DNA from: an uncultured Gemmatimonadaceae bacterium
GTDB taxonomy: Bacteria > Gemmatimonadota > Gemmatimonadetes > Gemmatimonadales > Gemmatimonadaceae
Assembly: GCA_963829055.1 (NCBI GenBank)
Contig: CAWHHI010000003.1
Span: forward strand, 128,001-192,000
DNA: 64,000 bases
Direction: 5' to 3'
Below, one piece after another: positions 28,259-64,000 of the stretch; position 1 is the stretch's first letter; every line of letters begins with the position of its first letter. A program made the translations under genes and the position numbers. The notes under the pieces were generated by a model. It searched no databases. It was not told the DNA's origin and saw only the letters and a program-made list of their open reading frames with translations.

Positions 28259-28273
28259 ACCTCCGGACAACCA

Positions 28274-29666
28274 ATGTCGGTTCGTGATCTCGCGCGCGCC
28301 CGCGCCGAGCTGACCGCGCACGTCCTGTTCAGTCTCCGGACGGCCATCGAGGCCGTCGGACACAACACGCTGCGGGCGTCGCTCACCTCACTCGGCATCC
28401 TGTTCGGCGTCGCGTCCGTCATCGCGATGCTCGCGATCGGCAAAGGCGCCGAACAGGAAATCCTGGAGCAGATGAAGCTCCTCGGCTCCAACAACGTCAT
28501 CATCACGCCGCTCGTCGAGCAGAAGGAGGAGAAGGCGAAGGATGACGGCACGAAGGAGCCGAAGAAGTTCTCGCCCGGACTCACGACGCTGGATGCACGG
28601 TCGATCCTCGACGATCGTGCCTAACGTTCGCACGACGAGCGGCGAGGTCGTCCTGCAGACGCTCGTGACGCGCGAGGGCCGGCGCCGGTCCGGCAAGGTC
28701 GTCGGCGTCGACACGACCTACTTCGATCTCCTGAACCTGAACGTCGCCGAGGGCAAGCGGTTCGCGCCCATGCAGGTCGCCGATGGCCTACCCGTCGCGA
28801 TCATCGGGCACGGCGTGAAGACGCGCTTCTTCACGACCGAAGAGCCGATCGGAAAGCCCATCAAGGTCGGCAACGTGTGGCTCACGGTGGTCGGGGTGCT
28901 CGAGGACCGCAAGCTCTCCGACCAGACGTCGCAGAAGCTCGGCATCCGCGACGCGAACATGGACGTCTACGTTCCACTCTCGACGATGCTGCTCCGCTAC
29001 CGGAACCGCGCGCAGGTCACGGAGCGCGACGTGCAGCAGGCGTCGCGCGAGGTCAACGACGACCCTAACGCGACCGCGAACGAGGACGCCGAGCAGCGCG
29101 CCGAGCGCACGAACTACCACCAGCTGGATCGCGTGATCGTGCGCGTGGACGACGCGAGCAAGGTGACCGGCGTCGCCGAGGTGCTGCGGCGCATGCTCAC
29201 GCGCCGGCACAATCAGGTGGTCGACTTCGAGATCAGCGTGCCGGAATTGCTGCTCAAGCAGGAGCAGAACACGAAGCGCCTCTTCAACGTCGTGCTCGCC
29301 GCGATCGCCGCGATCTCGCTCATCGTCGGCGGCATCGGCATCATGAACATCATGCTGGCGTCGATCCTGGAGCGCATCCGCGAGATCGGCGTGCGACGCG
29401 CCGTCGGTGCGAGTCAGAAAGACATCCTCGCGCAGTTCCTCAGCGAGGCGGTGCTCATCAGTCTCGCCGGCGGTGTCGCCGGCATTCTCGTCGGCGGTGG
29501 ACTGAGTCTCGGCATCGAGCGCATCGCCAAGATCAATACGATCGTCTCGTTCTACTCGGTGTTCATCGCCTTCGGGGTCTCGATCACCGTCGGCGTCGTC
29601 TTCGGCTTCGTGCCCGCCTGGCGCGCGGCGAAACAGGATCCGGTGGTATGCCTGCGTTACGAATGA
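28274..29666 (+). CDS. MacB/FtsX-type ABC permease without ATPase domain (frameshift near 28610)
   Basis: LRASLTSLGILFGVASVIAMLAIG.GA; ISLIVGGIGIMNIMLAS..ER.REIG.RRAVGA; PA.RAA..DP...LRYE. Confidence 0.9.
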
Positions 29667-31123: not shown

Positions 31124-31124
31124 C

Positions 31125-31240
31125 GGGACTGGGGACAAGGGACTGGGGACTGGGGAAACCTCGGGATGCTACTCTCACGTAGAGAGGCATCCCGAGGTTT
31201 TTCGTTCCCAGTCCCGAGTCCCCAGTCCCCAGTCCCGTCC
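31125..31240. terminator. Intrinsic terminator (AAACCTCGGGATGC / GCATCCCGAGGTTTTT, 31156-31202) nested in inverted GGGGACT/CCCCAGT heptamer arrays
   Basis: Read directly; immediately after the tolC stop codon. Confidence 0.75.
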
Positions 31241-31247
31241 CCAGGTC

Positions 31248-33654: not shown

Positions 33655-33690
33655 CCCGATTGCTGCCTGCAGGTCGTTGCGCCGCCATCG

Positions 33691-34015
33691 TCGCGCCGGG
33701 CCGGTGGGGACTGCGATTGGGCGGATCTGTACTGCGAAACTAGCCGGATACACCTTTGCATTGAGGCACCATCGCGCCGCGACCAGGGGAACGGCGATCG
33801 GATGACGCGGAAGAAGCAGGATAGCGCCCGGTAGGGCCGGCTCCTCCCGCAACGAGCCGGGAATTCTTTGGAACGGCCGCTCGGGAGACTCCGGCGTCCC
33901 GAGCGGCCGTCCATTATTTCTCAGGGTCCGGCGAGAGCCAGCGTCGAATGCAAAGCAGGATCCGGCTGTTTTGCAGTTCATCCGCCCAATCGCAGTTCCC
34001 ACCGGCCCCGGCGCA
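33691..34015. mobile_element. MITE-like element, copy 2 (inverted relative to copy 1)
   Basis: Colinear with the reverse complement of 26294-26626, including CCGCAACGAGCCGGGA and GAACGGCCGCTCGGGAGACTCC.GCGTCCCGAGCGGCCGT. Confidence 0.7.
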
Positions 34016-43982: not shown

Positions 43983-44125
43983 CCCATCCAGGCGGCGTGC
44001 CGGCGCGATCTGTGCTGTGCCGCTTGATGAGAATCGCGAGCTGAGTCGCGAAATGGCCACGCTTGCGTCGTTCGCGTGAGGCGGCGCAGCGATGGCGTCC
44101 ATGTACGCCTTGGAGGAGCTTACCC

Positions 44126-47100: not shown

Positions 47101-47127
47101 TCCATTTCGCTCCGAATGAACTGGTAA
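44126..47127 (+). CDS. SusC/RagA-type TonB-dependent receptor (frameshifts near 45010 and 45310)
   Basis: CarboxypepD-like N-domain, EQVVVTATG, IRLRG..S, PIIYVDGV, DIERIEVVKGAAA.TLYG..AS.GVIQIFTKRG plug, R.DG.SAFG, C-terminal W. Confidence 0.9.
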
Positions 47128-47146
47128 CCGCCTGAGGAACCTACCG

Positions 47147-48403
47147 ATGACGATCATGACAATGATTCGGCGAGCCTCGGGCGCGTTAGGCGTCACGGTT
47201 CTCGCCTCGTGCAACTTCTTCGACGTCACCAATCCGGGGCCGATCGCCGACGAGAACCTCGACACGCCCGGGGCAATGCCCGGGCTCGTGACGGGGATGT
47301 CGTTCGACCTCTCGCGCGGGGTGAACATCGCGACCCAGGCGCTCCCGATCATCTCCGACGAGCTGTACCACGGCGGCAGCTATACGCCCGAGGGACTCTT
47401 CAACCGCGGGATCGTTCGCCCCGAAGACGCGAACGACCTGTGGGGCACCATTCAGCGTGCGCGGTGGGTCGCGGAATCGGGCATCGAGCGCATGAAGACG
47501 GTGCTCGGCGAAGGGTTCGCGACGAACGCGCTTTCGGCGCGCGCGTACATCTACGCGGGGCTCGCCAATCGTCTCGCCGGCGAAAATCTGTGCGAGGCCG
47601 TGATCGACGGCGGCCCGGCGGAGGACTTCAAGGTGCTACTTCACGCGCGCCGACGACGACTTCACCGCAAGCGATCACGCATCGCGAACAAGCTCACTGG
47701 GTCGCTCAAGGACTCGCTGCTTCGCGTCGCGTACGGCGGGCGAGCGTCGGTGCGTGCGGCACAGGGGAAGTGGGCCGAAGCCGTGGCCGACGCGGCGCTC
47801 GTGCCGACGAGCTACGTGTTCGTGGCGCCGTTCTCGACGAACACGACCGCCGAGAACAACGGCCTCGTGACGGAGACCACCGACCGCTCCGAGTACACGG
47901 TGTACAACTCGCAGTGGGCGCAGGTGTTCAAAGACCCGCGCGTTCCGTGGGACACGGTCAAGACGACGAGCGGAGCGATCGCCGTGGGTCAGGACGGTCG
48001 CACGCCGTTCTTCCGGCAGCGGAAGTACGTGAACAAGGGCTCCGACGTGCCGCTGGTGAAAGGCACGGAGATGCTCATGCTCCGCGCCGAGGCGGCCCTT
48101 CGGAACAACGACGTCGCGGGCGCGATGACGCTGATCAACCAGCAGCGCGCGTTCTACAGCACGGCGGCCGGACCGCTGCCGGCACTGACCGCGTCGACGG
48201 CAGCTGACGCGTGGCGCATCCTGGAGAAGGAGCGCGGCGCGGTGCTGTGGCTCGAGACGCGGCGGTTGTGGGACCTGCGCCGGTGGAATGCGGAGCCGCC
48301 CCCGATCAAGAACACGTTCCTCGACAACCGCGACAAGTGCATCCCGATCAGCCAGAACGAGCTGCAGTCCAACCCGAACCTTCGCGGGCGGGCGGGAACG
48401 TGA
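47147..48403 (+). CDS. SusD/RagB-type lipoprotein
   Basis: Lipobox LASC; EML..RAEAAL, ER...LWLE.RRLWDLRRW, CIPIS.NE..SNPN. Confidence 0.88.
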   Translation: MTIMTMIRRASGALGVTVLASCNFFDVTNPGPIADENLDTPGAMPGLVTGMSFDLSRGVNIATQALPIISDELYHGGSYTPEGLFNRGIVRPEDANDLWGTIQRARWVAESGIERMKTVLGEGFATNALSARAYIYAGLANRLAGENLCEAVIDGGPAEDFKVLLHARRRRLHRKRSRIANKLTGSLKDSLLRVAYGGRASVRAAQGKWAEAVADAALVPTSYVFVAPFSTNTTAENNGLVTETTDRSEYTVYNSQWAQVFKDPRVPWDTVKTTSGAIAVGQDGRTPFFRQRKYVNKGSDVPLVKGTEMLMLRAEAALRNNDVAGAMTLINQQRAFYSTAAGPLPALTASTAADAWRILEKERGAVLWLETRRLWDLRRWNAEPPPIKNTFLDNRDKCIPISQNELQSNPNLRGRAGT

Positions 48404-48449
48404 TGCCACGGGGCCTCGAGCGAGACGACGTCGGCGTTAGGGCGCGTAC

Positions 48450-48902
48450 GTGAACACGCGACGTTGGACCGCGGTGTCGGTCGGTGTGCTGCACGTCTGC
48501 ACGGCGTGTTACGCGTACACGCCGGTGCACACGCCGCCGCCGCCGGGATCGCAAGTGGCGCTCGAGGTCACCGATGAGGGACGCGTCGCGCTCAATGACA
48601 AGATCGGCCCTGGCGTCGTGCGGCTCGAGGGCACGCTCGCCGGGGTCGAGGGCGGCGACCTCCTGGTCGATGCGAGCGCCGTCCGGCAGGTCCGTGGCTA
48701 CGTCTCGGATCTGGGTGGCGTTCGCGTTCGGCTACCGCAGCAGTACGTGACGCGAATGGACGAGCGGCAGCTCTCACGCAAGCGGACGTTCCTCGTGAGC
48801 GCCGCCATCGTCGGCGCGATCGCGGCCTTTTTTATCGCGAAAGGAGTCAGTGGTCATAGCACACCGCCCGAGGTGACCGGGGGTGGGGGACCAGATCAAT
48901 GA
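48450..48902 (+). CDS. Hypothetical lipoprotein with C-terminal TM
   Basis: CTAC(Y.Y.P) lipobox-like motif; hydrophobic C-terminal segment; coupled to the next gene. Confidence 0.6.
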   Translation: MNTRRWTAVSVGVLHVCTACYAYTPVHTPPPPGSQVALEVTDEGRVALNDKIGPGVVRLEGTLAGVEGGDLLVDASAVRQVRGYVSDLGGVRVRLPQQYVTRMDERQLSRKRTFLVSAAIVGAIAAFFIAKGVSGHSTPPEVTGGGGPDQ

Positions 48903-49904
48903 GGGCCTTGATGTGGAGTCGGTCGCTGGCGGGACTGCTCGCACTCTCGGCATGCGGTGGCGGCGACGACCCCACGGGCACTCCGGTTGTCGCTGGCGCA
49001 ACGTTGGCGGTGAGCGTGAGTGGGCTCGTTCCGCTCGACCCTGCGGTTGACGGGCGCTACGAAGCGTGGGTCGTCGATCGCGCTGGCACGGCTACGTCGT
49101 TAGGCACGATCGACGCGTCGGGGGATGCGTCGTTCACGAACCCGGCCGCTGACGTCGCGTCGATATTCATCACGTACGAGCCGCGCGGTGACACCGACCC
49201 GGCGCCGTCGTCGCACCGCCTGCTCGTGGGACGCTTTCAGAACGGGCGCGCCACGTTGTCCGTGGTCGGCGCGCTGACCGTCAACGACACGCCGCTTCGC
49301 GAGAAGCCGGGGCAGTTCACGATGTTCTCGCCGAGCGACAACGCGATGCACGGGTACCCCTCGTTCGAGGAATCCGGGATCTGGCTGTTCAACATGGCGC
49401 CGCGCGACACCCCGCAGGGAGACATGTGGGTGCGCCTGACGCAGCTCCAGCCCGGCTGGGTCTACGAGGGCTGGATGGTGCGGGACATCGACACGCCGAA
49501 CGCGGTGTGGCTCTCGTACGGCAAGTTCCTTCCCGACCCCACCGGCACCGTCAACACGCGAGACGACACCGGATGGGGCGAGTTCTCCGGCGTCACGGAT
49601 TACCTGAAGGGCGAGGAGGAATTTCCCGGCGACGACTGGATCTCGAACCCGTTAGGCTACGTCGTGCCCGGCGGGCTCACGCTGCCGCTCAACCTGCGTG
49701 AAAAGACGGCGAGCGGCGCGTCGCGCTGGACGCACGTGATCACCGTCGAGCCGTCGTCGGACCGCGGCGAACCGGTGACGACGCCGCGGCCGTTTACCGT
49801 CAGGCCGTACCGCGACCCGTTCGGCGACGGCGGGCCGGGAGCGCCTCGATCCATCACGTTCCATGCGGAGGGCGTGCCGCGCGGAGAGGTGGTGGCTACG
49901 GTGA
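48899..49904 (+). CDS. Lipoprotein with repeated YE(A/G)W motifs (family often labelled 'anti-sigma factor'); stop probably hidden by a 1-nt insertion
   Basis: LSAC lipobox; YEAWVV, LQPGWVYEGW, YGKF, FPGDDW, ITVEP; removing one G near 49894 gives EVVLR-TGA overlapping the next ATG. Confidence 0.6.
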
Positions 49905-51325
49905 TGCGCGCGATGCTGTCGTGCTGTACGGCAGCGACGCTGGTTACCGCGCTCGCCTGCTCCAGCGATCCTGTCTCACCAGGCAGCGTCGCGCGCGCGG
50001 AAGCCGGTCGGTGGGCCACGTGGGTGCTTCCCCGAGGCGACGCGCTCAGGCCGCCGGCGCCACCCGCCGAGGGGTCCGCGCAATCCGCCGCCGAGATCGA
50101 CGAGATCGTCCGCCTGCAGTCGGCGCGAACCGCGGCCACCGATTCGGTCGTTAGGCAGTACGCCGGCGACCCCGGCGCGCCATGGTCGCGACTTGCGGTC
50201 GGTCGCCTCGATTTCTACTGGCCACTCCTCCCGGACGTGCTCGTCGCGACGCCGGTGCGTGCGGCACGTGTCATGTCGCTGCTGCACGTGGCGATGTACG
50301 ACGCGGTCGTCGCGTCCTGGGACGCGAAGTACGCGTACAACCGCCGCGCTCCCGCATTGGCGAGTGGCCGCGTCAAAGCGCTCGTGCCGCTGGACGGCGT
50401 GCCGAGCTACCCGTCGGAGCACGCGGCGGCGGCGGCCGCCGCGGCAAGGATCCTGACGTACGCCTTCCCACTGGAGGACACGGCGTCGTTCACGCGTCAG
50501 GCGCGCGAAGCCGCCGAATCGCGCATCACTGCCGGTGCGGCGTACCGGAGCGACATCGACGCGGGGTGGGCGTTAGGCACGGCCGTCGCGCAACGAGTCA
50601 TGGACCGCGCGATGGCGGACGGCTCGGCGCAGGCGTGGACCGGAGCAGTACCGACGGGCGAGGGCATGTGGCAGCCGACGCCGCCGCGTCGCGTGCAGGT
50701 GCCGTTCGACGCGATGGCCGGTTCGTGGCGCACGTGGATCATTCCGTCCGGGAGCGCGTATCGTCCCGGCCCGCCACCAGCCATCGGGTCACCGCAGTTC
50801 AAGGCGGACCTCAACGAGCTGCTTCAGCTCGCGAGCGGCGGGCGTACCCAGGCGCAGATCGACGCGGCGCGCTACTGGGCCACCGACGCGCCGTCGATTC
50901 GCTGGGAGCTGTTCGCGGAGGACGAGATCGCATCGCATCGCCTGAGCGCGCCGCACGCCGCGCGCGCCCGCGCGTACCTGAGTGCGGCGATGTACGACGC
51001 GTTCGTCGCGTGCTGGGACACGAAGTTCACGTACTGGATGGCGCGGCCCGTGACGATGGACGCGTCGCTGCGCACTGTGTTCTCGACGCCCCCATTCCCG
51101 TCGTACCCGTCTGGTCACTCGACGCAATCGTCCGCGGCGGCCGAGGTAATGGCGGAGCTGTTCCCCGACCGCGCGGCGTTCTACCGAGCGAAAGCCGAGG
51201 AGGCGTCGCTCTCACGCATCTGGGCGGGCGTGCACTACCGGTTCGACGTGACGACCGGCGAGGCGTTAGGCGCGAAGGTCGGGGACGCCGTCGTCGCGCG
51301 GATGCGGAGCGACGGGGCCCAGTAG
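49904..51325 (+). CDS. Vanadium-dependent haloperoxidase/PAP2-family lipoprotein with two tandem domains
   Basis: Own signal and lipobox (LVTALAC). Domain 2: KFTYWMARP, PFPSYPSGH, SRIWAGVHYRFD. Domain 1: KYAYNRRAP, PSYPSEH, SRITAGAAYRSD. Confidence 0.82.
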   Translation: MRAMLSCCTAATLVTALACSSDPVSPGSVARAEAGRWATWVLPRGDALRPPAPPAEGSAQSAAEIDEIVRLQSARTAATDSVVRQYAGDPGAPWSRLAVGRLDFYWPLLPDVLVATPVRAARVMSLLHVAMYDAVVASWDAKYAYNRRAPALASGRVKALVPLDGVPSYPSEHAAAAAAAARILTYAFPLEDTASFTRQAREAAESRITAGAAYRSDIDAGWALGTAVAQRVMDRAMADGSAQAWTGAVPTGEGMWQPTPPRRVQVPFDAMAGSWRTWIIPSGSAYRPGPPPAIGSPQFKADLNELLQLASGGRTQAQIDAARYWATDAPSIRWELFAEDEIASHRLSAPHAARARAYLSAAMYDAFVACWDTKFTYWMARPVTMDASLRTVFSTPPFPSYPSGHSTQSSAAAEVMAELFPDRAAFYRAKAEEASLSRIWAGVHYRFDVTTGEALGAKVGDAVVARMRSDGAQ

Positions 51326-51439: not shown

Positions 51440-53522
51440 CTATAGAAGTATGTCATTCCGGATTCGGCGGCGGACGCCCCACCAGAGCGCGCCGAGCGCG
51501 GTCGATCGCCGAAGCTCGATGCTCGCCTCACCCGTGGCGCCGGCTCGCCAGCCGGTGTCGCGCCGAAGGGGCACGCGGATCTCGATCGCGCCTTCACCGC
51601 CAACACTCGCCGGGGCCACGCCGATCACGGTAGCGTCCACCGGTCGAGCGCCGTCGGCGTACGAGATCAGGTGGACTACCTGACCCGGCCGCACGTTCAG
51701 CGCGCCCGCCTGTTTCAACGCGATTCGAGCTTCCAGCGCATCGAGCGTCGCGACACGCAGGATGCGATCGCCAGCCTCCACGCGATGGCCCTCCAGCTCC
51801 TGCACCCGCGGTGTCGCGATCGATCCAGCCATCGGCGCTCGCAGCGTCAGCGCATCGAAGCGTATCCGCAGAGCGGTCGCCTGCGCCGTCGCCTGCGCCC
51901 GCTCCGCCTCGACGCGTTCCGTTACGCCGCCGACCGAGGCGGCACGAGCTCGCGACGCCGCGAGGGTAAGTGAATCCAGGACGCGGCCGGCTGTGAGCAG
52001 ATCGCGCTCGAGATCGCGCTCGACGAGCCGCACGAGGGGCGCGCCGGCAGTCACCGTCATCCCCTCACGCACGAACACGGCACCGATGAGCGCGCTGTCG
52101 GGCGCGGTGAGGTCGAGCGCGTTCACCGGCGCCACGACGAATCGCCCGCCAGTGGTGACCGTCCACGGCAGGAGGGCGAGCAGCAGCACCGTGCCTAACG
52201 TCATGATGGCCGGCCACCGCCAGCGGGCCATTCCGCGCCGCTCGCCGCGCCGTGCACGAATCGCGAGAGCGATCGACCGGCCCCACTCCATGATGCCGCG
52301 ACGTGCCAGCATGAAGATGAGCCCGAGCGCGATCAACGCACCGGCTGCGCCCAATGCCTGGTGGGCCCGACCGACGACCCACAGGCCGATGAACGTGAAC
52401 GTCGCCGCGATGTAGACAGTCGCCAGCGCGCCGTAGATGAGGAACACGCGGCGCTCGCGGTCGGTCGCGGCCGGCTCCGGAATTTCGAGTCGAAGCACGT
52501 GGCGTCGCGCCCACCACCCGAAGTACTCCCGCGCGCGCAGGCGCAGGTTAGGGATCTCGAGCCAGTCGGTGAGCGCGAAGTAGCCGTCGAGCGGAAGCAG
52601 TGGATTCGCGTTCGTGAGCAGCGCGGTGAAGCCGCCTAACAACATCGTCGCGACGGCGATCTCCGACGCCAGTGTCCCCGGTCGGGCGATGGTCCAGACG
52701 ATGGCCGCGAGGCCCGTGACGACGAACTCGATCCATCCACCGGCCGCCGTCACCCAGAGCCGCGAGCGGAGGCTGGTGAAGCTCCAGGCGTCGTTGACGT
52801 TGCAGTAGAAGGCCGGCTGGAAGTACATGAGCATGAAGCCCATCTCGTGGACCTCGCCGCCGAACTGCTTGCAGGCGAATCCATGCCCGATCTCGTGGAT
52901 GAACGTCACCGTCAGCAACACGACACCACAGCAACAGTGCCGAGCCGACCGTGATGTTCGACGGTGCGTACAGCGCGGCCACGGCACGCGAGAACTCGGT
53001 CCACGTAGCGGCGATGATCAGGAAATACACAGCGAATATCGCCAGCGACGCGACCACGAAGCCGCGCGTGAACATCCAGCGGACCGACGGCAGCGTGCGA
53101 TTGAACATCGCGTCGGGGTCACCGAACGACCATCGCATGCGCAGCAGCTCGCCACGGAACAGTGTCGGCCGCCTGCGACGCCGACGATCGGCACGAATGC
53201 GCTCGAGCTCCACCGTCGTTCGCTCCGCCAGCGTGCGTTCGAGCAGACCGATGGACGCGAGCTTCCGCGCGAACCCCTCCACCGCCCGTGCGGTCAGTCG
53301 CACGCCATCGGCGGCGAGCGCGGCCGCGATCTCGTCTGGCGTGCGACTTCCGTCGAAGTACCGCATGACGCCCATCTCGACCGGACGGAAGCGAAAATAC
53401 TTCTGCGTCGCCGGGTCCTTCACGACGAAGCTCGTCTCGCCGCGGAAGACCTGCTCCACGATGGCGAGCTCCGGGCGAAGGCGTGGCCCGCCAGCACCAC
53501 TGGTCAGCGCAATGCTGCTCAT
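51440..53522 (-). CDS. PqqD/RRE-like domain + M50 site-2 metalloprotease + HlyD-type adaptor fusion (frameshift near 52940)
   Basis: N-terminal FVVKDPATQKYFRF...GVMRYFDGSRT.DEIA; FIHEIGHG..CK.FGGEVHEMG; NANPLLPLDGYF; C-terminal VFVREG..V.AG.PL and LRAPMAG lipoyl motifs. Confidence 0.85.
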
Positions 53523-53535
53523 CGCGAACGCGACC

Positions 53536-54531
53536 TCACCGCGTCACGACCGCCGATCGCATGACACGCTCGCCTGACGAGAGTCCGCTCAGCACCTCGA
53601 CCCGCCCACCACCGAGATCGGCGCCGACGGTCACCGCACGGAGCGACGTGCGTCCGTTCTCCGCGACGAGCACGAACCCGTCAGGTGACACCGCCTCGCG
53701 CGGAACGGAGACCGCCTGTCGTGTCCGATCCCCGAGTTTGACGACGACGCTCGCGCCGGGAAGGAGATCGGCGCTGGTCGCGAGCCTGAGCACCACCTCG
53801 CGCGTCCCACTCGCGGGATCGATGGCCGGCGCCGCGTGAAGCACGCTCGCCTTTACGCTCGTGCCGGACATGCCGGCGACGACCGCCTGGTCACCAACGC
53901 GCACCATCGTCGCGCTGCCCTCGGGAATGCGCACGCGCGCGAGCAGCGGGCCGGCCTCGGTGACGCGGAACAGCGTGTCACCGGCGGCGACGAACCGGCC
54001 GGGTCGTGCATAACGAGTGGTGACGACACCGCCGAACGGCGCAACGATGTGCGTGAGTTCGAGGTCCCGGCGTGCCTTGCGTCGCGCGAGGTCGGCTTGC
54101 GTGTACTGGAACTCGACCTGCTCCGAATCGGCGGCGGTGATCCCTCCGGCCTTGGTCATGGCGCGCGCACGCTTCACGAGGTGGCCGACGTTTTCGTACG
54201 TCGCCTCTGTCTGGGCGAGCGCGAGCTCCTGCTCGGCGCTCTCGAGACGGGCGAGGGACGTGCCCGCGCTCACGCGTGATCCGAGCTCGGTGAGCACCGA
54301 ATCGATCACGCCGGCCGATCGCGCGACGACGACCGCATCGTGCTCGACGTAGAGCTGCGCGGGAAGCTCGAGCGGCGCCCGCGCGGTCACGGTCGCGACG
54401 AGGAGGCCGGCCGTGTCCGGTATCACTGTAGCGGCTCGAGCCTCCGCAGCCGGCCGTGGGCCGCACGCCGCGGCCAGGAAGGCGAGCACACACGGGAACA
54501 GCGCGAGCACCGCACGGCCGCGCACGGTCAT
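53536..54531 (-). CDS. Efflux periplasmic adaptor (MFP) lipoprotein
   Basis: LAAAC lipobox; VVARSAGVI..V..ELG..V, IVAPFGGVV, IDPASGT, L.PG, VEVLSGL..GERV; may extend to 53519. Confidence 0.85.
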   Translation of the reverse strand: MTVRGRAVLALFPCVLAFLAAACGPRPAAEARAATVIPDTAGLLVATVTARAPLELPAQLYVEHDAVVVARSAGVIDSVLTELGSRVSAGTSLARLESAEQELALAQTEATYENVGHLVKRARAMTKAGGITAADSEQVEFQYTQADLARRKARRDLELTHIVAPFGGVVTTRYARPGRFVAAGDTLFRVTEAGPLLARVRIPEGSATMVRVGDQAVVAGMSGTSVKASVLHAAPAIDPASGTREVVLRLATSADLLPGASVVVKLGDRTRQAVSVPREAVSPDGFVLVAENGRTSLRAVTVGADLGGGRVEVLSGLSSGERVMRSAVVTR

Positions 54532-56396
54532 GACCACATCCTCCACCAGAGTAGACGGACCCATCGCGCAGGCCCGCGGACGGCGCGGCCGAGCACCGAT
54601 GATGGCGCGGTGAGCACGCGTGCGTACGCGACCATGCCGGGGCGCAGCGCCCCGTCGGCGTTAGGCACGAGCGCACGGACGGGGAAGACGACGGCGCCAA
54701 CCGTGTCCATCGCCATGTCGGCGATGCCGGAGACGCGCCCGACGAACGTCCGCTGAGGGAACGCATCGACGCGCAGGCGCACCTCCTGTCCGGTCTGCAC
54801 GCGGCCGACGTCGCGCTGGTCGACGCCGAATTCGAGCTCGAGGGTGTCGGTGCGCCCGAGGACCAGCACCGTGCTCCCCGCGTCCACCCGCGAGCCGACG
54901 CGCTCCTCGGGCCGAGCGGTCAGCACGATGCCGGAGACCGGCGCGCGCACGGTCGCCGAGCGGAGACGCTCGTCGCGGATGGCGGCGTCGCGTCGCAGGA
55001 CGTCGGCGCGCAGACGCTGGAGGCGTTCCTCAGCCGCGTCGCCGCGGCTCGCCGCGCTCGCCGCCGATCGCTCGGCCGCAACGACGGAGGCGGTGGCCGC
55101 ATCGAGCTCGGCGCGCAGCTCGGCGTCGCGAAGCTGGATGATCGGCGAGCCGCGGTTGACCGCGGTACCTTCGCGAACGAGCACGCGCTCGATGATGCCG
55201 TCCGTGAGCGGGCGAATCTCGGCGCGCGAGGTCGGCCGGAATTGCGGGGTCGTTCCATCGACGCGCAGCGGCCAGCGAATGAGCGTGAGCACGCTCACGG
55301 CCACCAGTGCGGCGAGCGCCATCGCGAGTCGGCGCTGCCGCGGAAGTGCAAGGAACGCTTCCTTTCGGGCATGCAGCGCGCCTAACGCGTCCGCCAGCGG
55401 CACCTGGTTGTACAGCTGTGCGTTGCGGAGTGCGACCGTGGCCTGGAGGGCGAGGATGGTCGCGAGCTCCTGCTGGCGCGGGGTCGCGAAATCCGTGCGC
55501 GCCGACTCCAGCACGAGGATGCCGACGACGCCCTCGTCGTCCTTGAGCGGGATGTACAATCCGCTCGCCACGCCGTCCTCCGCGAGATCGTCGCTGAAGA
55601 TCTGCAGGAAGAGGCGTTCGGCATCCGACGCGGGCTCGGTGCGATCCGACAGGTAGAAGCTCGTGCCGATGCCCGCGGCCCATGCAGCACGGACGGCGAG
55701 GTCCTTGAGCTCTGGGTCGTCCCGATCGACCGTCTCGACGCCGGCGACTGCGCGGATGTCGCACGCGCCGCGCTCGTACAGGGCAATCGCGCCGCGATCG
55801 AACGGCAGCGCGCGCATGGCGAGGTTGACCACGGAGCTCATGACGCGATCGAGGTCCAGCGTGGCCGCGATCTCGCGGCTCATTTCCATCACGAGCGCGA
55901 GGTCGCGGGCGCGATCGTTCGCGGCGATGGTTCGCGTGTTCCTGAGCGCGATGCCGGTCGCCGCGGCGATATGTCCGAGGGCGTCGGCCTCCGCGGTCGT
56001 GAATGGACCGCCGGCGGCGGCGTCGCGCGTGACGCGAAGGATGCCGTCGATCGTCGGCCCGGTTCCGAACGTTGCGCTCAGGGCGACGGTGGGCCCCTCG
56101 TCTTCAAAGGAAGCTCCGAGCTCCGCGTGCGTGGCGCGCCGTCCGAGCAGTGCGCCGGCGTGATGGCCGATCGCGACCGGGCAGGCGAGCGTGCCTTCGT
56201 GTGTCAGCCAGATCGAGGCGCCGTCGGCCGAGAGGAGCGCGAGAGCGGATCTCAGCGCTCGGGGCTCGATCTGATCCTTGTCGATCGTACCGGCGATTTC
56301 CAGCACAGCGCCGAACACCGCGTCGAACGACGGCCCCGACGTCAGGGAGACGCCAGTAGCCGGCGTCGACAGCGTAGCCGGATCTGTGGGTGCCAT
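54528..56396 (-). CDS. Tandem-GAF + TM + HlyD-family adaptor
   Basis: GAF signatures (FT..EA..L..IA..TGIAL.N; LYIPL.D..GVVGIL.L...F....ELA.ILA.QA.VAL.NA.LY), then TM, VLVREG..V..G, VRAPVSG.V, LRPGM. Confidence 0.85.
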   Translation of the reverse strand: MAPTDPATLSTPATGVSLTSGPSFDAVFGAVLEIAGTIDKDQIEPRALRSALALLSADGASIWLTHEGTLACPVAIGHHAGALLGRRATHAELGASFEDEGPTVALSATFGTGPTIDGILRVTRDAAAGGPFTTAEADALGHIAAATGIALRNTRTIAANDRARDLALVMEMSREIAATLDLDRVMSSVVNLAMRALPFDRGAIALYERGACDIRAVAGVETVDRDDPELKDLAVRAAWAAGIGTSFYLSDRTEPASDAERLFLQIFSDDLAEDGVASGLYIPLKDDEGVVGILVLESARTDFATPRQQELATILALQATVALRNAQLYNQVPLADALGALHARKEAFLALPRQRRLAMALAALVAVSVLTLIRWPLRVDGTTPQFRPTSRAEIRPLTDGIIERVLVREGTAVNRGSPIIQLRDAELRAELDAATASVVAAERSAASAASRGDAAEERLQRLRADVLRRDAAIRDERLRSATVRAPVSGIVLTARPEERVGSRVDAGSTVLVLGRTDTLELEFGVDQRDVGRVQTGQEVRLRVDAFPQRTFVGRVSGIADMAMDTVGAVVFPVRALVPNADGALRPGMVAYARVLTAPSSVLGRAVRGPARWVRLLWWRMWS

Positions 56397-56483
56397 GAAG
56401 CCCGAGAGGTGGGAACCGGGCTAACCTGTGGCGGCGCGTGACGAGCCGCAATGCCGTGATGATCGGCGCAGGTATATAGATGC

Positions 56484-56512
56484 GAAAACGGGCGGGGAAT
56501 CCCCCGCCCGTT
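56484..56512 (-). terminator. Intrinsic terminator/attenuator between the peptide genes and the export genes
   Basis: Minus strand reads AACGGGCGGGGGATTCCCCGCCCG-TTTTC. Confidence 0.7.
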
Positions 56513-56559
56513 CCGTCATTTCGTCTGCTACCCGCCTCGAGCGGTCCCCACTGTCACGG

Positions 56560-56760
56560 TCAGAAGGTTCGGCTGCGAGTCGAGGGTGGCGTCATAAGAC
56601 GCCCGTCGGGCTTACTGGTACAGCTCTTTGGTGCGATACGCTCTTCGAGCTCGCTGACCGTCAGCTCGACGGCATCGGCGTCCTTCCCGATCTCTTTCTT
56701 GACCAGGTCCTTCTGCTCGGGGGTCAGGTCGATCCGGACGATCTCTTGTTCCTTCTTCAT
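56560..56760 (-). CDS. Putative precursor peptide 2 (LEERIAP leader)
   Basis: MKKEQEIVRIDLTPEQKDLVKKEIGKDADAVELTVSELEERIAP-KSCTS...; GAGG RBS; the tail may be shortened by a 1-nt indel. Confidence 0.8.
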   Translation of the reverse strand: MKKEQEIVRIDLTPEQKDLVKKEIGKDADAVELTVSELEERIAPKSCTSKPDGRLMTPPSTRSRTF

Positions 56761-56832
56761 GGTCGGAGCCTCAATGTGAAGGGACGAACTGTGTGACGGC
56801 CTGCGAGTGACACTCGTGGTGCCAGACGCTGG

Positions 56833-56979
56833 TTACAGGATCGCCTTGGGTGCGATCCGCTCCTCGAGCTGATCCACCGTCAATTCGACGGCGTCCACTT
56901 CCTTCCCGATCTCTTTCTTGACGAGGTCTTTCTGCTCGGGCGTCAGGTCGATCCGGACGATCTCTTGCTCTTTCTTCAT
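56833..56979 (-). CDS. Putative precursor peptide 1 (48 aa, not in ORF track)
   Basis: Manual translation: MKKEQEIVRIDLTPEQKDLVKKEIGKEVDAVELTVDQLEERIAP-KAIL*; differs from peptide 2 at 4 of the first 45 residues, with further synonymous changes. Confidence 0.85.
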   Translation of the reverse strand: MKKEQEIVRIDLTPEQKDLVKKEIGKEVDAVELTVDQLEERIAPKAIL

Positions 56980-57050
56980 GGCCGGGAGTCTCGTGGCTGG
57001 AGTGGCGTGACGAACCGTCGTAAATCCTGGGCGGGACGATACGAACCCTC

Positions 57051-57088
57051 CGTGAACCGATCGTGAATCTCCTGTCGCCGATCGTGAA
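57051..57088. promoter_or_regulatory. Phased direct repeats, candidate SARP-type activator site
   Basis: CGTGAA at 57051, 57062 and 57083 (11- and 21-bp spacing); CCGATCGTGAA exact at 57057 and 57078. Confidence 0.6.
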
Positions 57089-57129
57089 AAGGCGCTACGT
57101 TGGCCGCCCGTCCTTCCGCGAGATCGACG

Positions 57130-59377
57130 ATGCCGTCGTTGTCACTGGCTCTGTGTGGTGGGGTAGCGCTCTCTGGTGATGGGGTCTCCTCCTCGGGCCT
57201 GGGAGCGAAGGCCGTCGCGCTGCTCGCCTACCTCGCGGTCGAGCAGGGCACCCATTCGCGGGACGAGCTCACCGCGCTGTTGTGGGGCGAGTACGCGGAG
57301 GAGAAGGCGAAGGCATCGCTCAGGCAGGCACTCACGCATCTCCGTGAGGCAGCGCCCGGCCTGCTCCGAGTCGATCGCACGTCGGTCGCCCTCGCAACCA
57401 CCGTCGACTGCGACGTCACCACGTTTCTTCGGCTGACGAAGAGATTCGCCTCGCCTGGCGGCGGACTGCGACGTGACCGGGTTCCTCGACGACCTGCACA
57501 TCCGTCGATCGCCCGCGTTCGCCGAATGGGCGGACGGAATTCGCGCCAAACTCGTGCGCCGCCAGTGTGAGGTGCTCGCCCAGGCCACGGCGGAAGCGAT
57601 GGCCACACGGCAGTGGCGCGAGGCAGTGCGTTACGCCGAACGCTGGGTGAAAGCGGCGCCGCTCGACTCGGCGCCGAATGCCGCATTGATGGAAGCGCAC
57701 TTCATGGGTGGCGATCGCGCGCTCGCGCTCGATGCGTTCGCGCAGTATCGGAGCCGACTCGCTGAGGAGACGGGGCAAGCCCCGGAACGTGCGCTGACCG
57801 AGTTGGCGGAGCGGATTCGCAACGCTGGGGTGGCTGCGGCGCGACGGCATGCGACGGAAGAGTGGTACGCCGCCGCGCCGTCGTTCCAGGGGAGCCTCAT
57901 CGGCCGAGGTGGCGAGTGGGATGCGCTTACCAGTGCCTGGCGAAAGGCCGCCGACGGGAGCGCACAGATTGCGCTCATCGAAGGGGACGCCGGCGTCGGG
58001 AAGAGTCGGCTCGCGGAGGACTTCGCGCGATGGGTCAGCGCTTCCGGCGGGACCGTCCTTCGCGGACGCGGCTACGATGCGCGCGGTGGCGTGCCGCTCG
58101 GTGCCATCATCGAGGCGCTGCGGTCGGGCATCGACGCGCCGGGCCTGGCCGGAACCGATCCCCAATGGCTCCTGGAGGTCGCGCGCGTGGTACCGGAGAT
58201 CCGTGAGCGATTCCGCTCGCTTGGCTCGGTGGCATCGCCGACCACCGCGGACGCGTGGCGGCTGTTCGAGGGCATTGCCCAGTTGGTCTCGGCGCTGGCG
58301 GACGAGTCTCCGGTCGTCGTGTTCATCGACGACCTGCACTGGTGCGACGCGGACAGCTGCACGCTGCTGCACTCGCTCATCCGGCGACTCGACGGCGCAT
58401 CCGTGCTCTGGTGCCTGACGTTCTCGCCCGGCTCCGTCGAACGCGATGCGCCCGCGGCGCGGCTCGTTCGCGCGCTTCGCGCCTTCCGTCAGACCCGCGC
58501 GCTCGCGCTCCGTCCGCTCGACGAAGACGAGGTCTGGCAGCTACTGCGCGCGTTAGGCCGAGTCACGGCGCCTAACGGCGCTCGGAGACTCGCGGCGCGG
58601 ATCCACGAGGTGACCACCGGTTTCCCGTTCTACGTGATCGAGCTGCTCAAGACGCTCTTCGCGCAGGGTTGGCTGACCGTCGACGCCGACACGGGCGAGT
58701 GGATCGTGAGCGCGCAGGACGGCGATGGCCCCACCGGCCTCACGCTGGCCCCCAGCGTGCACGAGGCGATCGCGGAACGTATCGAGTGCCTGCCTAACGA
58801 TCTCGGTGAAGTGCTGATCTCCATCGCCGTCTCGGCGCGTGGATGTCGGGCGGACGTCCTGTCACACATCCACGGCATCTCGCGACTGCGCGCGGCGGCG
58901 ATCGGCGACGCGCTGGTGGAGCGTCATCTGACGGTCGAGGACGACGGCGTGTACCGCTGTGCGCACCCGGTCATCGCGCGCGTCGTGAGCGACGCACTCG
59001 GCACGGCGCGGCGCCGCGAACTGCACCGCGGCCTGGCGCTCGCGCTCGAGATCACGATTCCGCCGAATGGCGAGTCGCCTGACCCGGGCGAGATCGCGCG
59101 TCACGCCGAGCAGGGAGGAGAGCGGGCGATGGCGTATCGGTACGCCATGGAGGCGGCGACGTCATGCGAGTCGCGGTTCGCCTACGAGGAAGCGATGACG
59201 TGGCTCGATCTCGCGGCGAGCGTCGCGAGTCAGCCGGCCGACACGGACGCCGTCAATCGCACGACGGCTCGGCTGCTCGAGGCCGCGGGCTGGCAGGAGA
59301 TGCCGCGAGTCGACCGGGACGCGATGCGTGCGGGGCGCTTCGTGGTGACGGACCTGGACCTGCCGGCGCGCGTCTGA
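57130..59377 (+). CDS. SARP-like transcriptional activator: wHTH + BTAD + AAA ATPase (frameshift near 57450)
   Basis: KAVALLAYLA...SRDEL.ALLW...EEKAKASLRQAL..LR; FAEW; L.EETG..P; Walker A GDAGVGKS; VVFIDDLHW.D; G.PFYV.ELL. Confidence 0.85.
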
Positions 59378-59384
59378 GTGATGA

Positions 59385-59504
59385 CGTCATTCCGAGCGGA
59401 GGGCCGAAGGCCCGCAGTCGAGGAATCGAGATTCTGTTCGGTAGAGGGCTCTCTACCCCGATAGGCTCGATTCCTCGACTCGCTGTCGCTCGCTCGGAAT
59501 GACG
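59385..59504. repeat. REP-like palindromic element CGTCATTCCGAGCG...GTCGAGGAATCGAG / CTCGATTCCTCGAC...CGCTCGGAATGACG
   Basis: Nested inverted arms between convergent genes; same family as 19797-19935. Confidence 0.78.
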
Positions 59505-59510
59505 GCCGCG

Positions 59511-59916
59511 CTACGCCGCGGTCACCTGACGTACCTGCAGCTGCGCGGCACCGACCGGCGCGCCGTCGACGTGCATGAGGAACGTGTATCGACCCACGGT
59601 GGCCAGTTCGAGGAGATCGAACTGCAGTGGAAGGTCGACCGCGATGGAGTCCACTCCTGCTGGTGATGGCGGGAGTGAGATGTCGCCGCCCGGCTTGCCG
59701 ATCTCCTGCTCCGGCCGGGCCTGTGATAGCGACTTCGACGCGGTGAGCCTTGCCGGTCTCGTCCGCAGTGAAGTGCAGCCGCGCGGCGAAGGCGATGCGC
59801 GGGATCGTCACGGGGACGGCCGTGGTCTGTAATTCGTTGATGATCCCAATGAGCGACGGCTTCCCGTCGTTGGCGATGATGACCTGATCGCAGAGAACAA
59901 CGTACTGGAGATGCAT
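59511..59916 (-). CDS. DUF6941-like small beta-sandwich protein (frameshift near 59710)
   Basis: YVVLCDQV....DGKPSLIGI.NEL; C-terminus FDLLELATVGRYTFLMHVDG..V..AQLQVRQVTAA* in the second frame. Confidence 0.65.
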
Positions 59917-60324: not shown

Positions 60325-60503
60325 CTAGCTGGTTGCTGGGTGGTCGTGCTGGTGGCTGGGTGACGCTGGGTGACCTGCGAGAAAAGCGCGCAGGGATCAG
60401 AGTGAAAACGGGGTCAGAGTCGAATCGACTCTGACCCCGTTCGCCGTCCGGGCTAGCACCCAGCGTCACCCAGCAACCAGCATACAGCACCCAGCTACCA
60501 GCT
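60325..60503. repeat. Inverted CACCCAG-type tandem arrays around a perfect 17-bp-arm palindrome (AACGGGGTCAGAGTCGA-A-TCGACTCTGACCCCGTT, 60407-60441)
   Basis: Read directly. Confidence 0.78.
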
Positions 60504-60511
60504 CCTCGTCG

Positions 60512-61903
60512 TTAGGTGCCTGATACCTGTGTGCACGCGTTCGCCGGTTGCGGATTGCGCGCGATGCACTCGTCCGCCGGATACGGGACGTACGGGAAGA
60601 TCTTGTGCGTCGGCAGCGCCTTGTCGAGCGTCGCCAATCGGTTGAAGCGTCGTGTGTCCCACCAGCGGTGGCCGTACTCGAAGAACAGCGAGTAGCGACG
60701 GTTGTACAGCAGCTCGGTGATGAACTGATCATCCGTGCTCGCGGCCGTGATCGCCGCGTTGCCGAGTCCACCGGAGTTGACGCGAACGAAGTTGATGTCG
60801 TCGATCGCGCCCTGCTTGTTGCCCGTGAACCAGCGCGCCTCGGCGCGAATGAGGATCAGCTCCTCGTTCCGGATGATGGCCATGGGCGACGTAGCGCTCG
60901 TGTACAACGTGTTCTTGAGGTTCGAGCTCACGCCTTGCTGCGCCAGGGTGTTGCCCACCGCCGCCTTCGATGATGCGCGAAGGTCGGGTGAGTTGTCGGC
61001 GCGCTTCTGGGCCTCGTTGAGGAACGACGGCACGACGACAATGGCGCGCGGCGTCGCGTCGAACTGGGCGTTCGTCTGATCGCCTGACGCAGTGCTGAAG
61101 ACGTTGTAGACGCCGACGTCCAGAATCGCGCGCGTCGTCGTCGAGGTGTTGATGAACGACTCGGCGAGTGAGGCGTTCACGCCCGCGTAATTCTTCGTGT
61201 ACGTCTCGACCCGCGCCTTGAGCGCGCGATTGAAGCGCAGGAACGTCGCGGGGGTATTGAAGCCAGTGAAGCCCGCGTGCAGCTGGAACGGGAAGGTGGT
61301 GCCGCCGGCATTCGAGGTGAACCTTCGCCTCATCGAGCAGTCGCACGATGTTCGCGTACACCTCGGCCTTGGGTACCACTGGCGCGGGCTCACCGCCGCC
61401 CGTCGTCGCACTGACTTCGATCGGAAGGCCGAGGTCCTCGTGCACGAGCGCCTGACCGAGGAAGAGATACGCCTGCATCGTCTTCACGTAGCCACGGAGC
61501 GCTTCCTTCTGTGTGGCTGTCAGGCTCTCGAGCTTGTCGGCCGCGGTGAGGATTCCCTCGCCCGCGCGGATGCCGCGGAACGCCGCGCCGAAGCCGAACT
61601 CAATGCCGAATCCGCCCGGCTCGAGTGGGCCGACGAGATAGCCGTTGACCGTGCGTGGCTCGGACGGGTCGAGGTTGTATACCTCACGGCCGAAGATGCC
61701 CGCCGTCTGCGCGTACGTGCCGGCAAGGCCGCGGACGGTGATGAGCATCCCCTGCGCGGCCGTCGCGACAGTCGCGGGAGTGGGGTTATTCGTGAGCTGA
61801 TCGATGCTCGGGTTGTTGGTGTTGACGATCTCGTTCGCTTCGCAGGACGCCGTGATCGCGAGCAGGATGGTGCGGGAAGTGCGAGGCGGAGGGTGGTGCG
61901 CAT
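60512..61903 (-). CDS. SusD/RagB-type lipoprotein (frameshifts)
   Basis: Lipobox-like ITASC; GRE.YNLD.SEPR; IIRNEELILIRAEA; ELLYNRRYSLFFE.GHRW.D.RRF.RL. Confidence 0.85.
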
Positions 61904-61974
61904 TTTCCCCTCCTTCCGCCTTCCTCCTTCCTCCTTCCTCGACCTAACGCGCATATCGAATATGGATGTCATGA

Positions 61975-64000
61975 TCAGAAACCAAGATTGAGGTTGACCC
62001 AGAAGCTCCGGCTGGCCGGATAGGCGCCGAGCTCGCGGTTGCGCTGCAGGTTGTCGTTGCCTGCGCCGAAGTTCGAGAACTCCGGGTCGCCACCGCGATA
62101 TGGGGTCCACCAGTACAGGTTGCGGCCGCTGACGCTGAGTTGCGCGTCGGTGACGCCCTGCAGCGGGCGCATCCTCGCCAGCCACGACTTCGGGACGCGC
62201 GCGCCTAACGTCACTTCGCGGATCTTCGTGAACGACGCGTCCTGGTAGTACGTGCGCGTCACGTTGCGGTACACGCGCACGCGCTGATCACCGAGGCGCT
62301 CGCCACTCGGCGTCTTGACGTCGAAGTCGCGCGAGTTGCCGCCGAGGTCGTAGTGGCGCCACGTGCCCGCCGCGACCATGCCGCCCTGCTGCCGGTCGAT
62401 GAGGACGTAGGCGCTGAACGCGCGCCACTTGAAGTCGTTGCCGAAACCAACGGTGTAGTCCGGGTTGCCGTCGCCCATGACGACGGGCACGACCTGACCG
62501 ACCTTGAGGCCGACCGAGTCGCGGCCGTCAGGCGTCTTGTCGGCGACGCTGACCGTGTCGTTGCCGATGAGCTGCGTCGGCGACTTGCCCTGCTCGATGC
62601 GTACGGCACCGACCTGCGCCGTGCTGAAGAGGAACGGCGGAACCGGCAGCTCCATGATCTTCGCGCGGTTCAACGCGAAGTTGATGCGCGCATTCCACTG
62701 CACGCCGGCGAACTGGCTCGGGATGATGTTGATCGAGCTCTCGAAGCCACGCACCCGCATGAGGCCACCATTGAAGCGCTCGGAGCCGAGGCCCGATCGA
62801 CGGTGGCAGCGTACGGTCGAGCAGCAGGTCCGAGATGCGTCGCTCGAACCCGGTGAGCTCCACCGTCGCCTTGTTGCCGAACAGCGCGAGGTCCAGGCCC
62901 GCCTCGAACTCGCGCTGCCGTTCCGGTCGCATGTCCTTCGAGCCAGTCGTGCCGCCAATGGTGAAGCCGCCGATGCCGCCGATGCTTCCCGCGGTCAGGT
63001 TCGTGAACTTCTGCCCGAACGTCGGCTGGTTGCCCGACTCACCGTAGGCGACGCGCGCTTTCACTTCGTCGACGCCACGCATCACCTTGGCGAATCGGTA
63101 CGAGGCCGCCGCCTTCGGGTAGTAGAAGTACTGGCCAGTGTCGCCGTTGTTCGTGCTGCGGTCGGCGCGGATACCGCCGGTGAGCAGCAGCCGTTCCTTC
63201 CACAGGAACTCGTGCTGCGCGAACACGCCGAAGTCCTCGACACTCTCGGCCTGCTCGTCGAGGTCGCGGCGCGTGCCGTCACGCAGGTTCGGGAGGCCGC
63301 TCAACAGGTTCTGGCTGACCGTGCGCGAGACGTCGAGATCGCGCGTCTCGTACTGCGTGCCGAGGGACGTCGTCGCCGTGAACGAGCCGCCAGCGGGCGT
63401 GTACACGTGGATGGCGTTCAGGTTGAGATTCTTGTTGATGTTCTGGCCGTACGACAGCGCATCCGTTCCGGGGAAGCCGTCGTCATCCTCGAAGTAGAGC
63501 TCGGGCGGCGAGAAGACGAAGTTCTTCTGCTGGAAGACGTCGAAGCCGCCGACGCCGACGATCCGGATCTGGTTCCGATCGGACGTGTACGGGGAATACG
63601 TTATGCGGCCCGAGGTGATCGAACGCCACACGCTCTCCTCGTTCTGGAACATGTCGATCGTCTGGAACGGATTGCTGGCGTGGAACGGCGACACCGGGTA
63701 GCTGCCATCCGGTCGTTGCCGAAGGTCGAGCCAGCTCGGGATTTTCGTGATCGTGTAGTAGATGCTGTTGCCGGCGTTGTCGTTACCGAAGAGGCCGCGG
63801 TCATTGCCGTTGTGCAGCACCTCACCGTTGATCGACGCCACCCACTTCCGACCGAAGTTCTGATCGAGGTTCACGCGCAGGTTCTGCTTGCGCGCGTACG
63901 TGTTCTTCGCGACGCCGCCGTCGTACTTGAGAAGCCCTGAGACGAGGTAGCGCGTCTGGTCATTCCCTCCGGAGACGCCGAGGGACGTCTCCCAGTTGAA
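61975..64000 (-). CDS. SusC/RagA-type TonB-dependent receptor, 3' part (runs off window; frameshift near 62790)
   Basis: GGIRADRST..G, YYPKAAASY, K.RVAYGESGNQP, PERQREFEAG.D, DASF.K.REVTL, SGRNL..WT.Y.G.DPE, YP.SRSFW; terminal F. Confidence 0.9.

Follow-up and report, generated by a model that had tools for sequence, protein, structure and literature searches.

A Gemmatimonadota cassette of short leader peptides, three adaptors and an RRE-M50 fusion: a candidate motor-free peptide export unit

Closest described systems and the composition of the cassette

In type I secretion systems and peptidase-containing ABC transporters, such as those of microcin V and the NHLP type, a protease tied to the exporter removes an N-terminal leader, and a membrane fusion protein (MFP) provides the tunnel to TolC. 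Here, we describe a cassette located at positions 51440-59377 of a 64,000-nt stretch (the whole of the DNA analyzed, hereafter the window, to which coordinates refer) of contig CAWHHI010000003.1 from an uncultured Gemmatimonadaceae bacterium (GCA_963829055.1). It differs from those exporters in having an M50 protease with a recognition element (RRE) of the kind known from peptides made by ribosomes and modified after translation (RiPPs) instead of the C39 peptidase and ABC ATPase, Ala-Pro instead of double-Gly, and three adaptors. On the minus strand, two near-identical peptide genes are followed by a hairpin and by genes for GAF-HlyD, MFP and M50-HlyD proteins, with a BTAD/AAA_16 regulator lying divergently across 150 bp. 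The cassette, comprising an AfsR-like activator, 1 to 6 leader peptides, a GAF-HlyD protein, a lipoprotein adaptor and an RRE-M50-HlyD fusion, is conserved in Gemmatimonadota, and its kin come from Gemmatimonadaceae or Gemmatimonadales. Based on the sequence evidence, we interpret it as a leader-guided, motor-free unit for peptide processing and export, with a probability of roughly 0.58.

The adaptor trio and the RRE-M50 fusion are each already in print, separately. Genes for GAF-HlyD, HlyD and Peptidase_M50-HlyD proteins were found in 2015 to occur together with a second SecA_DEAD gene and no ABC transporter, in a module of unknown role, and Kamneva, Poudel and Ward proposed that the M50 protein is an inner-membrane pore (PMC4452313); the accessible portion of the main text of that paper contains neither the term "PqqD" nor a named substrate motif. 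The present cassette shares with this secondary-SecA module the adaptor trio co-encoded without an ABC transporter, and over 270 residues its GAF-HlyD shares 28% identity with a module member from a plasmid. By contrast, it has no second SecA in the locus or genome and no DUF3467 or giant protein seen at the locus, its putative cargo is 3-14 residues long, its control would be exerted by a regulator of the SARP (Streptomyces antibiotic regulatory protein) type, and the proteases of the two systems fall on separate branches.

RRE-M50 proteins serve genuine RiPP pathways, including that of the daptides, whose leader ELExMEAP undergoes cleavage on the C-terminal side of its Pro (bioRxiv 10.1101/2023.03.08.531785). 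The daptide protein MpaP (NF041824) is an RRE fused to a site-2 protease, and both several precursors per locus and a leader ending in E-L-E-x-x-x-A-P are common to daptides and the present cassette. Unlike daptide loci, the latter is found in a diderm host, adds a fused HlyD arm and two further adaptors, and lacks the MpaB/C/D/M enzymes, an ABC transporter and the invariant C-terminal Thr; its predicted cores are also much shorter and polar. EpeP, the M50 protease of the Bacillus epipeptide system, is believed to act as both peptidase and exporter for its own peptide (PMC10885120), as we propose here. However, the score with the EpeP/YydH model (NF058609) is 44.9 against a cut-off of 225, there is no radical SAM epimerase in the cassette, and EpeP is short (246-position model) and devoid of an adaptor arm. 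Literature searches, which miss most subscription journals, recovered neither the pairing of micro-peptides with the trio, nor the match to the daptide leader, nor the SARP box, and yielded nothing relevant on LEERIAP-type motifs or on site-2 proteases with adaptors and, among the papers listed, nothing naming the phylum in connection with RiPPs; one apparent M50 lead, PMC13381572, was discarded because "M50" there is a strain number.

A preliminary description had listed the parts of the cassette, including the head-to-head BTAD/AAA regulator, and all are present where it placed them. Its statement that the locus lacks an ABC ATPase, a C39 peptidase, TolC and a modifying enzyme also held, with none detected among the locus proteins scanned against Pfam and NCBIfam. 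It had overlooked the SecA-associated trio of 2015, the longer tagged cargo in other phyla, and the frame faults in two genes and one peptide tail, all considered below.

Leader peptides, the RRE-M50 fusion and the predicted cleavage

Among 200 genomes of the class, each at least 90% complete, the peptide (full-length match at E ≤ 1e-15) was found in 19, the protease in 22 and both in 18, so that the co-occurrence of peptides and operon expected in the preliminary description holds for 18/19 and 18/22 genomes, respectively. The exceptions are G069, with a peptide but no protease, and G151, G165, G204 and G215, with a protease but no full peptide match; six further genomes gave weak or partial peptide matches only. 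A genome scan, in which 80 of 231 finds were kept, provided 35 loci of the clade of the cassette. Of these 35, 27 hold 1 to 6 peptide genes, the remaining 8 being cut by a contig end. By approximate gene calling, the trio and the regulator are shared among the clade loci, as are kinases in one subclade; no ABC ATPase, outer-membrane efflux protein (OEP) or modifying enzyme is common to them.

The 2 peptides belong to no named family in Pfam, NCBIfam or Atlas. At E ≤ 0.01, 191 relatives were recovered, which speaks against a chance occurrence; of the 120 listed, all with an almost invariable leader, 118 carry the motif and 2 differ from it by one letter. Tails in this set are 3 (10 peptides), 4 (80), 5 (22), 6 (1), 7 (3), 8 (1) or 22 residues long, with 2 of the 120 falling outside the counting pattern; the 22-residue tail, that of peptide 2 of the window, is the sole such outlier among the 118 motif-bearing relatives. 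When it is omitted, the remaining 119 close relatives display 77 distinct tails, a set drawn from close kin, all 3-8 residues long (8.9% expected from random frames of the genome) and 54% hydrophobic (19% in random frames), and 66 of them open with R or K. In the wider clade, 62 distinct tails span 3-14 residues and vary in their first residue, with K or R second in 30. Tail length and chemistry thus look selected.

Conservation of the leader ends at Pro44. Across 55 aligned leaders, T13, Q16, L38, E39, R41, I42 and P44 are invariant and L12 and G25 nearly so, and the several precursors of a locus carry like leaders with different tails. Stand-alone proteins of 76-84 residues (L032:7409-7639, L033:5214-5465 and L034:9906-10133) contain approximately the first 35 leader residues followed by a conserved RLSAATGIPR, without LEERIAP, and in two of the three genomes concerned (G037 and G051) no protease match was found. 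The invariant positions and this recurrence of the N-terminal part of the leader favor a different explanation, regulated intramembrane proteolysis, in which the cytoplasmic 44-residue leader, or the uncut precursor, would control the activator or another target while the adaptors and GAF domains sense the state of the envelope or cell; the regulator is also of the STAND type, members of which respond to inducers (PMC10936776). We consider this unlikely, given the apparent selection on the tails, the multiple precursors differing in their tails, the shrinkage of the leader to 16-17 residues in other phyla while the cargo grows, and the presence of TolC in related operons.

The protease itself is recognizable by its active site and domain order. 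H210, E211 and H214 of HExxH and P308 and D313 of NPxxPxDG are invariant in all 67 aligned relatives from several phyla, and both signature motifs are placed in membrane helices by the sequence and the model. The fusion matches HlyD_3 and, under the cut-offs, Pfam Peptidase_M50 (E = 9.5e-6) and, with both of its pieces, NCBIfam daptide_HExxH. Over 322 residues, its RRE-M50 part shares 30% identity with an annotated daptide peptidase MpaP, and the score with NF041824 is 204.7 against a cut-off of 300. The first 141 residues, modeled with AlphaFold2, form three strands and three helices (predicted local distance difference test [pLDDT] score of 78), and the best Foldseek matches in the PDB are TbiB1 (top E-value of 7.8e-4), a lasso B1 protein and PqqD, several of the top RRE structures having been solved with leader bound. 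Thus, by structure prediction, the N-terminal domain, described earlier as PqqD-like, has the fold of the RRE/PqqD superfamily. An intact relative of 694 residues, to which the pieces in the window are 67%-77% identical, has 7 hydrophobic segments and is modeled as an RRE, a helical membrane domain and a MacA/MexA-like adaptor arm (pLDDT 86, predicted template modeling score 0.57). This arm matches MacA, MexA and AcrA; all 27 listed structure matches of the intact relative are adaptors, none being a site-2 protease.

The leader end ELEERIAP is in register with the daptide ELExMEAP, with E-L-E and A-P in common and R-I replacing M-E, and the last 14 leader residues of peptide 2 have 7 positions identical to the daptide precursors listed (E, L, E, L, E, A and P), although the daptide model NF041808 does not match the peptides of the window. 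Because the daptide leader is cut after its Pro, cores such as KAIL are predicted here. This likeness gives strong indirect support to the leader cleavage envisaged in the preliminary description, and by analogy we regard cleavage after the Pro as highly probable. Distant peptide relatives gave weak matches, all under the cut-offs, to daptide_123, Amm_Lyn_leader and LEPR-XLL, which serve as leads only.

In a Gemmatimonadales subclade, one or two Ser/Thr kinase genes lie directly 3' of the protease (10/35 loci: L050, L051, L056, L060, L063, L066, L068, L069, L070 and L074). We rejected kinases as a core part of the system. The own genome has 83 kinase genes, none of which lies beside the locus. 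These figures bear on the proposal that enzymes encoded elsewhere modify the tails into small antimicrobial or metal-binding RiPPs. The kinases behind the protease and the function of RRE-M50 proteins in real RiPP pathways speak for it, but kinases are common anyway, no modifying enzyme is common to the clade loci and the tails have no modifiable residue in common, making the proposal improbable.

Three reading frames are faulty in the assembly. Short-read contigs from four independent sequencing runs were aligned to the locus: near 52922, in the M50 fusion, contigs of 3 runs have one base fewer, the fourth run giving no cover, and near 57438-57441, in the regulator, one base fewer is present in 3 of the 4. 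In relatives, the fusion is a single protein of 680-694 residues and the regulator has 746-747 residues (694 and 747, respectively, in the same genus). As assembled, peptide 2 has its 22-residue tail in a frame that continues to 56560, whereas a neighboring frame reads L-Y-Q and stops at 56612; at 56623-56624 a length difference was seen in two runs, and counterparts in close relatives end KVLYQ, KVLYS or KAVYQ. The long tail is probably a frame error. Since the run contigs differ at these places, intact relatives exist and the 22-residue tail is unique, we attribute the three faults to sequencing errors rather than decay, and the short-read contigs without the extra bases led us to reject a pseudogene reading of the protease and regulator. 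The preliminary description was right about the intact HEIGH and NPLLPLDG motifs and the presence of two small peptide genes, but the fusion is not one open frame in the window and one tail is probably misread. Near-identical DNA is present in sequencing runs labeled rhizosphere, soil and sediment; none of those listed is an RNA dataset.

Table 1. Features of the cassette in the window; domain limits of the RRE are approximate.
Feature	Position	Strand	Basis or remark
RRE (PqqD fold)-M50 intramembrane metalloprotease-HlyD/MFP fusion, ~692 residues	51440..53522	-	Frame split by one extra base near 52922
RRE domain: three strands followed by three helices	53220..53490	-	AlphaFold2 model, Foldseek
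HEIGH zinc motif	52883..52897	-	Read from sequence
NPLLPLDG motif, holding the third zinc ligand	52583..52606	-	Read from sequence
Stand-alone periplasmic adaptor, probably a lipoprotein (LAAAC)	53536..54531	-	TIGR01730 RND_mfp over cut-off
GAF-GAF, one membrane helix, HlyD adaptor, 622 residues	54528..56396	-	Pfam GAF, HlyD_3, HlyD_D23
GC-rich hairpin separating the peptide genes from those of the machinery; either a partial terminator or an mRNA stabilizer	56487..56512	-	Shuffle test
Precursor peptide 2: 44-residue leader ending ELEERIAP, tail probably 4-5 residues ending Y-Q	56612..56760	-	
Precursor peptide 1: 44-residue leader ending QLEERIAP, tail KAIL	56833..56979	-	
Three TTCACG direct repeats, candidate SARP operator	57051..57088	-	Repeats at 57083, 57062 and 57051; spacing 21 and 11
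AfsR-like large SARP: winged helix-BTAD-AAA_16/STAND NTPase	57130..59377	+	One extra base near 57438-57441

Adaptors, outer-membrane channel and tagged cargo in other phyla

All three machine proteins retain the hairpin-lipoyl-barrel adaptor fold. GAF-HlyD has one hydrophobic segment (residues 357-375) after its GAF domains, of which two are matched in relatives. The likely start of the stand-alone adaptor overlaps the GAF-HlyD stop, and most of its relatives inspected have a hydrophobic stretch ending in Cys, so that this middle adaptor is probably a lipoprotein. TolC is encoded inside the operon in three relatives (L101, L127 and L129), and OEP domains were matched 32 times in the own genome; together with the precedent of EpeP, these observations make export of the tail likely, and the route through a borrowed TolC suggested in the preliminary description is plausible.

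No OEP gene was detected in any of the 35 clade loci (tblastn, one OEP query), and the nearest TolC-like gene, at 29648-31123 of the window, was rejected as a dedicated channel because it has its own MFP and MacB partners. It belongs to a separate plus-strand efflux system (26867-33743; MFP, MacB-type permeases and OEP), 20 kb from the cassette. Both observations would fit release of the cut peptide into the periplasm only, with no TolC engaged and the adaptors acting as a scaffold; the adaptor fold kept by all three proteins and the TolC genes of related operons render this very improbable.

A motor was sought in the genome. The own genome (86% complete) encodes one SecA only, as do 10/10 other carrier genomes; in 5 clade genomes with a completeness of 90% or more, the single SecA is over the cut-off. 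On this basis we rejected a second SecA acting in trans.

The tag itself extends beyond Gemmatimonadota. In 15 loci from Acidobacteriota, Verrucomicrobiota, Pseudomonadota, Bacteroidota and other phyla, a leader of 16-24 residues ending in LE[EQA]R[IV]AP adjoins a relative of the protease and is followed by 24-116 residues of Gly/Ser/Asn-rich cargo, and in locus L079 an LEDRIAP tag precedes 1463 residues of cargo in a 1491-residue protein. A tag profile search returned 285 clusters, with the motif in 147 of the 150 listed, the tails of which range from 8 to 224 residues (median 39), with the tag repeated in some. Six precursors (P0252, P0279, P0320, P0323, P0327 and P0360) are multi-core, with repeated LExRIAP tags and cores containing NHNE(T/S)L; they have no family name, and the NHNET motif was not found in the literature searched. 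A 116-residue polyprotein with seven LEEKEAP repeats (L094:6138-6485) lies beside a trio in a different gene order. Acidobacterial trios adjoin Lys-rich peptides instead: in 9 loci (L082, L083, L087-L089, L091, L095, L110 and L112), triple-GAF trios face genes for short Lys-rich peptides and for a sigma-54 activator, in many cases accompanied by a STAS gene. Single-gene RRE-M50-HlyD cassettes are directly followed in 11 loci by an unnamed protein of approximately 320 residues (e.g., L118:6150-7115), with no Pfam or NCBIfam match and only unnamed Atlas clusters.

Of 75 matching plasmid records, 8 were inspected: in 3, DUF3467, GAF-HlyD and the protease adjoin a giant protein whose N-terminus is of the LEPRVLL type, 1 represents a daptide cluster, and 4 show no tagged substrate within the stretch inspected. 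The machine might secrete larger tagged proteins encoded elsewhere, in the SecA2/LEPR-XLL style, the tiny peptides being plugs, decoys or relics. The closest plasmid relatives, which lie beside giant LEPRVLL-tagged proteins, DUF3467 and a SecA-like gene, and the large cargo of L079 favor this explanation, the likeness of the tag to LEPRVLL being judged by eye only. Yet the tag profile recovered only the two peptides from the own genome, the best match there to LEPR-XLL (NF012209) reached 16 bits against a cut-off of 17 while a relative of peptide 1 was unmatched, and the incomplete genome yielded no second SecA; we therefore hold this explanation to be improbable as well. In a quick tree of 87 RRE-M50 regions, built after removal of rows whose matches were short or broken and with labels assigned in this analysis, 37 short-tail Gemmatimonadota rows form one branch (Shimodaira-Hasegawa-like approximate likelihood ratio support of 99) apart from the SecA-linked rows, with MpaP on a long, unsure branch.

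Regulation, proposed mechanism and implications

The regulator matches Pfam Trans_reg_C (weakly), BTAD and AAA_16 and has the traits of a large SARP, namely, a winged helix, BTAD and a STAND NTPase. Targets of SARPs are repeats 11 or 22 bp apart, and AfsR, acting on AfsS in Streptomyces, is a large SARP with an NTPase domain that acts at 11-bp direct repeats (PMC10936776); here the candidate target repeats are spaced by 21 and 11. The repeat sequence and the phylum differ from those of AfsR-AfsS, and no tetratricopeptide repeat was detected by Pfam in two intact regulator relatives scanned. A TTCACG pair at 11 bp is present upstream of the peptide gene in 23/23 regulator-bearing loci and also in a single locus truncated ahead of the regulator, against a background of 0.6% per 200 bases, and is absent from all 3 loci of another layout (L046, L048 and L073), two of which carry a Crp-like gene instead. 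In the own genome, 4 copies of the exact pair were counted, which is the chance level, and the case for an operator therefore relies on position and conservation. Peptide genes apart from the trio carry the pair (L028:5506-5652 and L064:17609-17761) or a variant (L063:1697-1843), which suggests a small regulon. A sigma-70 promoter scan gave no match. The hairpin downstream of the peptide genes is strong (z = -3.87, reached by 0/200 shuffles), and 14/23 relatives have a stem that no more than 5 of 100 shuffles match; its earlier designation as a terminator is less secure, the terminator scan having missed it and its U-tail being short.

A short element between 59386 and 59500, where depth is very high in each of the four metagenome runs, is probably a repetitive extragenic palindrome-like repeat. 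A DUF6941 gene (59230-59916, minus strand), apparently frame-broken, stays beside the regulator in same-genus relatives. The flanks (44063-51325, plus strand, and 60500-64000, minus strand) hold two SusC/SusD-like pairs, named from sequence features, and an 808-residue RskA-like plus PAP2/haloperoxidase-like frame; several flanking genes are frame-broken.

We propose that the peptide genes are switched on by the AfsR-like activator through binding to the TTCACG repeats, with the hairpin lowering read-through into the machinery. The cytoplasmic RRE, its fold predicted, would bind the last ~14 leader residues, and the M50 zinc site would, as in daptides, cut after the Pro of ELEERIAP, freeing an unmodified basic-hydrophobic peptide (KAIL, a 4- to 5-residue peptide from peptide 2, and 3-14 residues across the clade). 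In the weakest step, the M50 membrane domain would release the tail into a three-adaptor tunnel docking on a TolC encoded elsewhere, with no ABC ATPase or second SecA involved, and the tandem GAF domains probably gate or assemble the machine. Our guess is that the released peptides act as extracellular signals, a pheromone role for which the case is circumstantial and which we put forward tentatively.

Several observations weigh against this scheme. The energy source and directionality are unexplained, and a tunnel of three adaptors seems oversized for tetrapeptides. The genome of L079 (completeness not given) has a single SecA in spite of the 1463-residue cargo, which weakens a simple rule by which a motor is dispensable for short cargo. 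The initial 35 residues of the leader show more conservation than RRE binding should require and recur in stand-alone proteins of protease-free genomes. Furthermore, 4 of the 22 protease genomes lack a full-length peptide match, the surveyed genomes are kin, the box pattern was derived from the loci on which it was counted, no conserved receptor or importer is present in the shared gene clusters, and 8 Zixibacteria/Ignavibacteria loci showed no tagged peptide in the screens.

A broader possibility, which we regard as rather unlikely, is that one leader code, E-L-E-x-R-x-A-P and its kin (ELExMEAP and LEPR-XLL), is read by an RRE-M50 protease acting as the inner-membrane translocase of a secretion system that links type I secretion with RiPP biosynthesis. 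Its smallest version would then be that of Gemmatimonadota, exporting strain-variable signals of 3-14 residues without an ATPase, and feedback on the SARP would amount to quorum sensing by peptides in a soil phylum of diderms.

Recognized in genomes since 2015, the M50/adaptor module has lacked both a substrate and a mechanism. The Gemmatimonadota variant offers a substrate below 50 residues, a cut site predicted from an experimentally studied pathway and a candidate operator, and, since no giant cargo or second SecA complicates matters, four small genes are enough for assays of cleavage and export, making the cassette the simplest test case for a widespread putative secretion machine. Should export hold, the place of the ABC pump in a type I-like machine is taken by an intramembrane protease; should the tails be signals, this abundant and little-studied soil phylum would possess a system of peptide communication.

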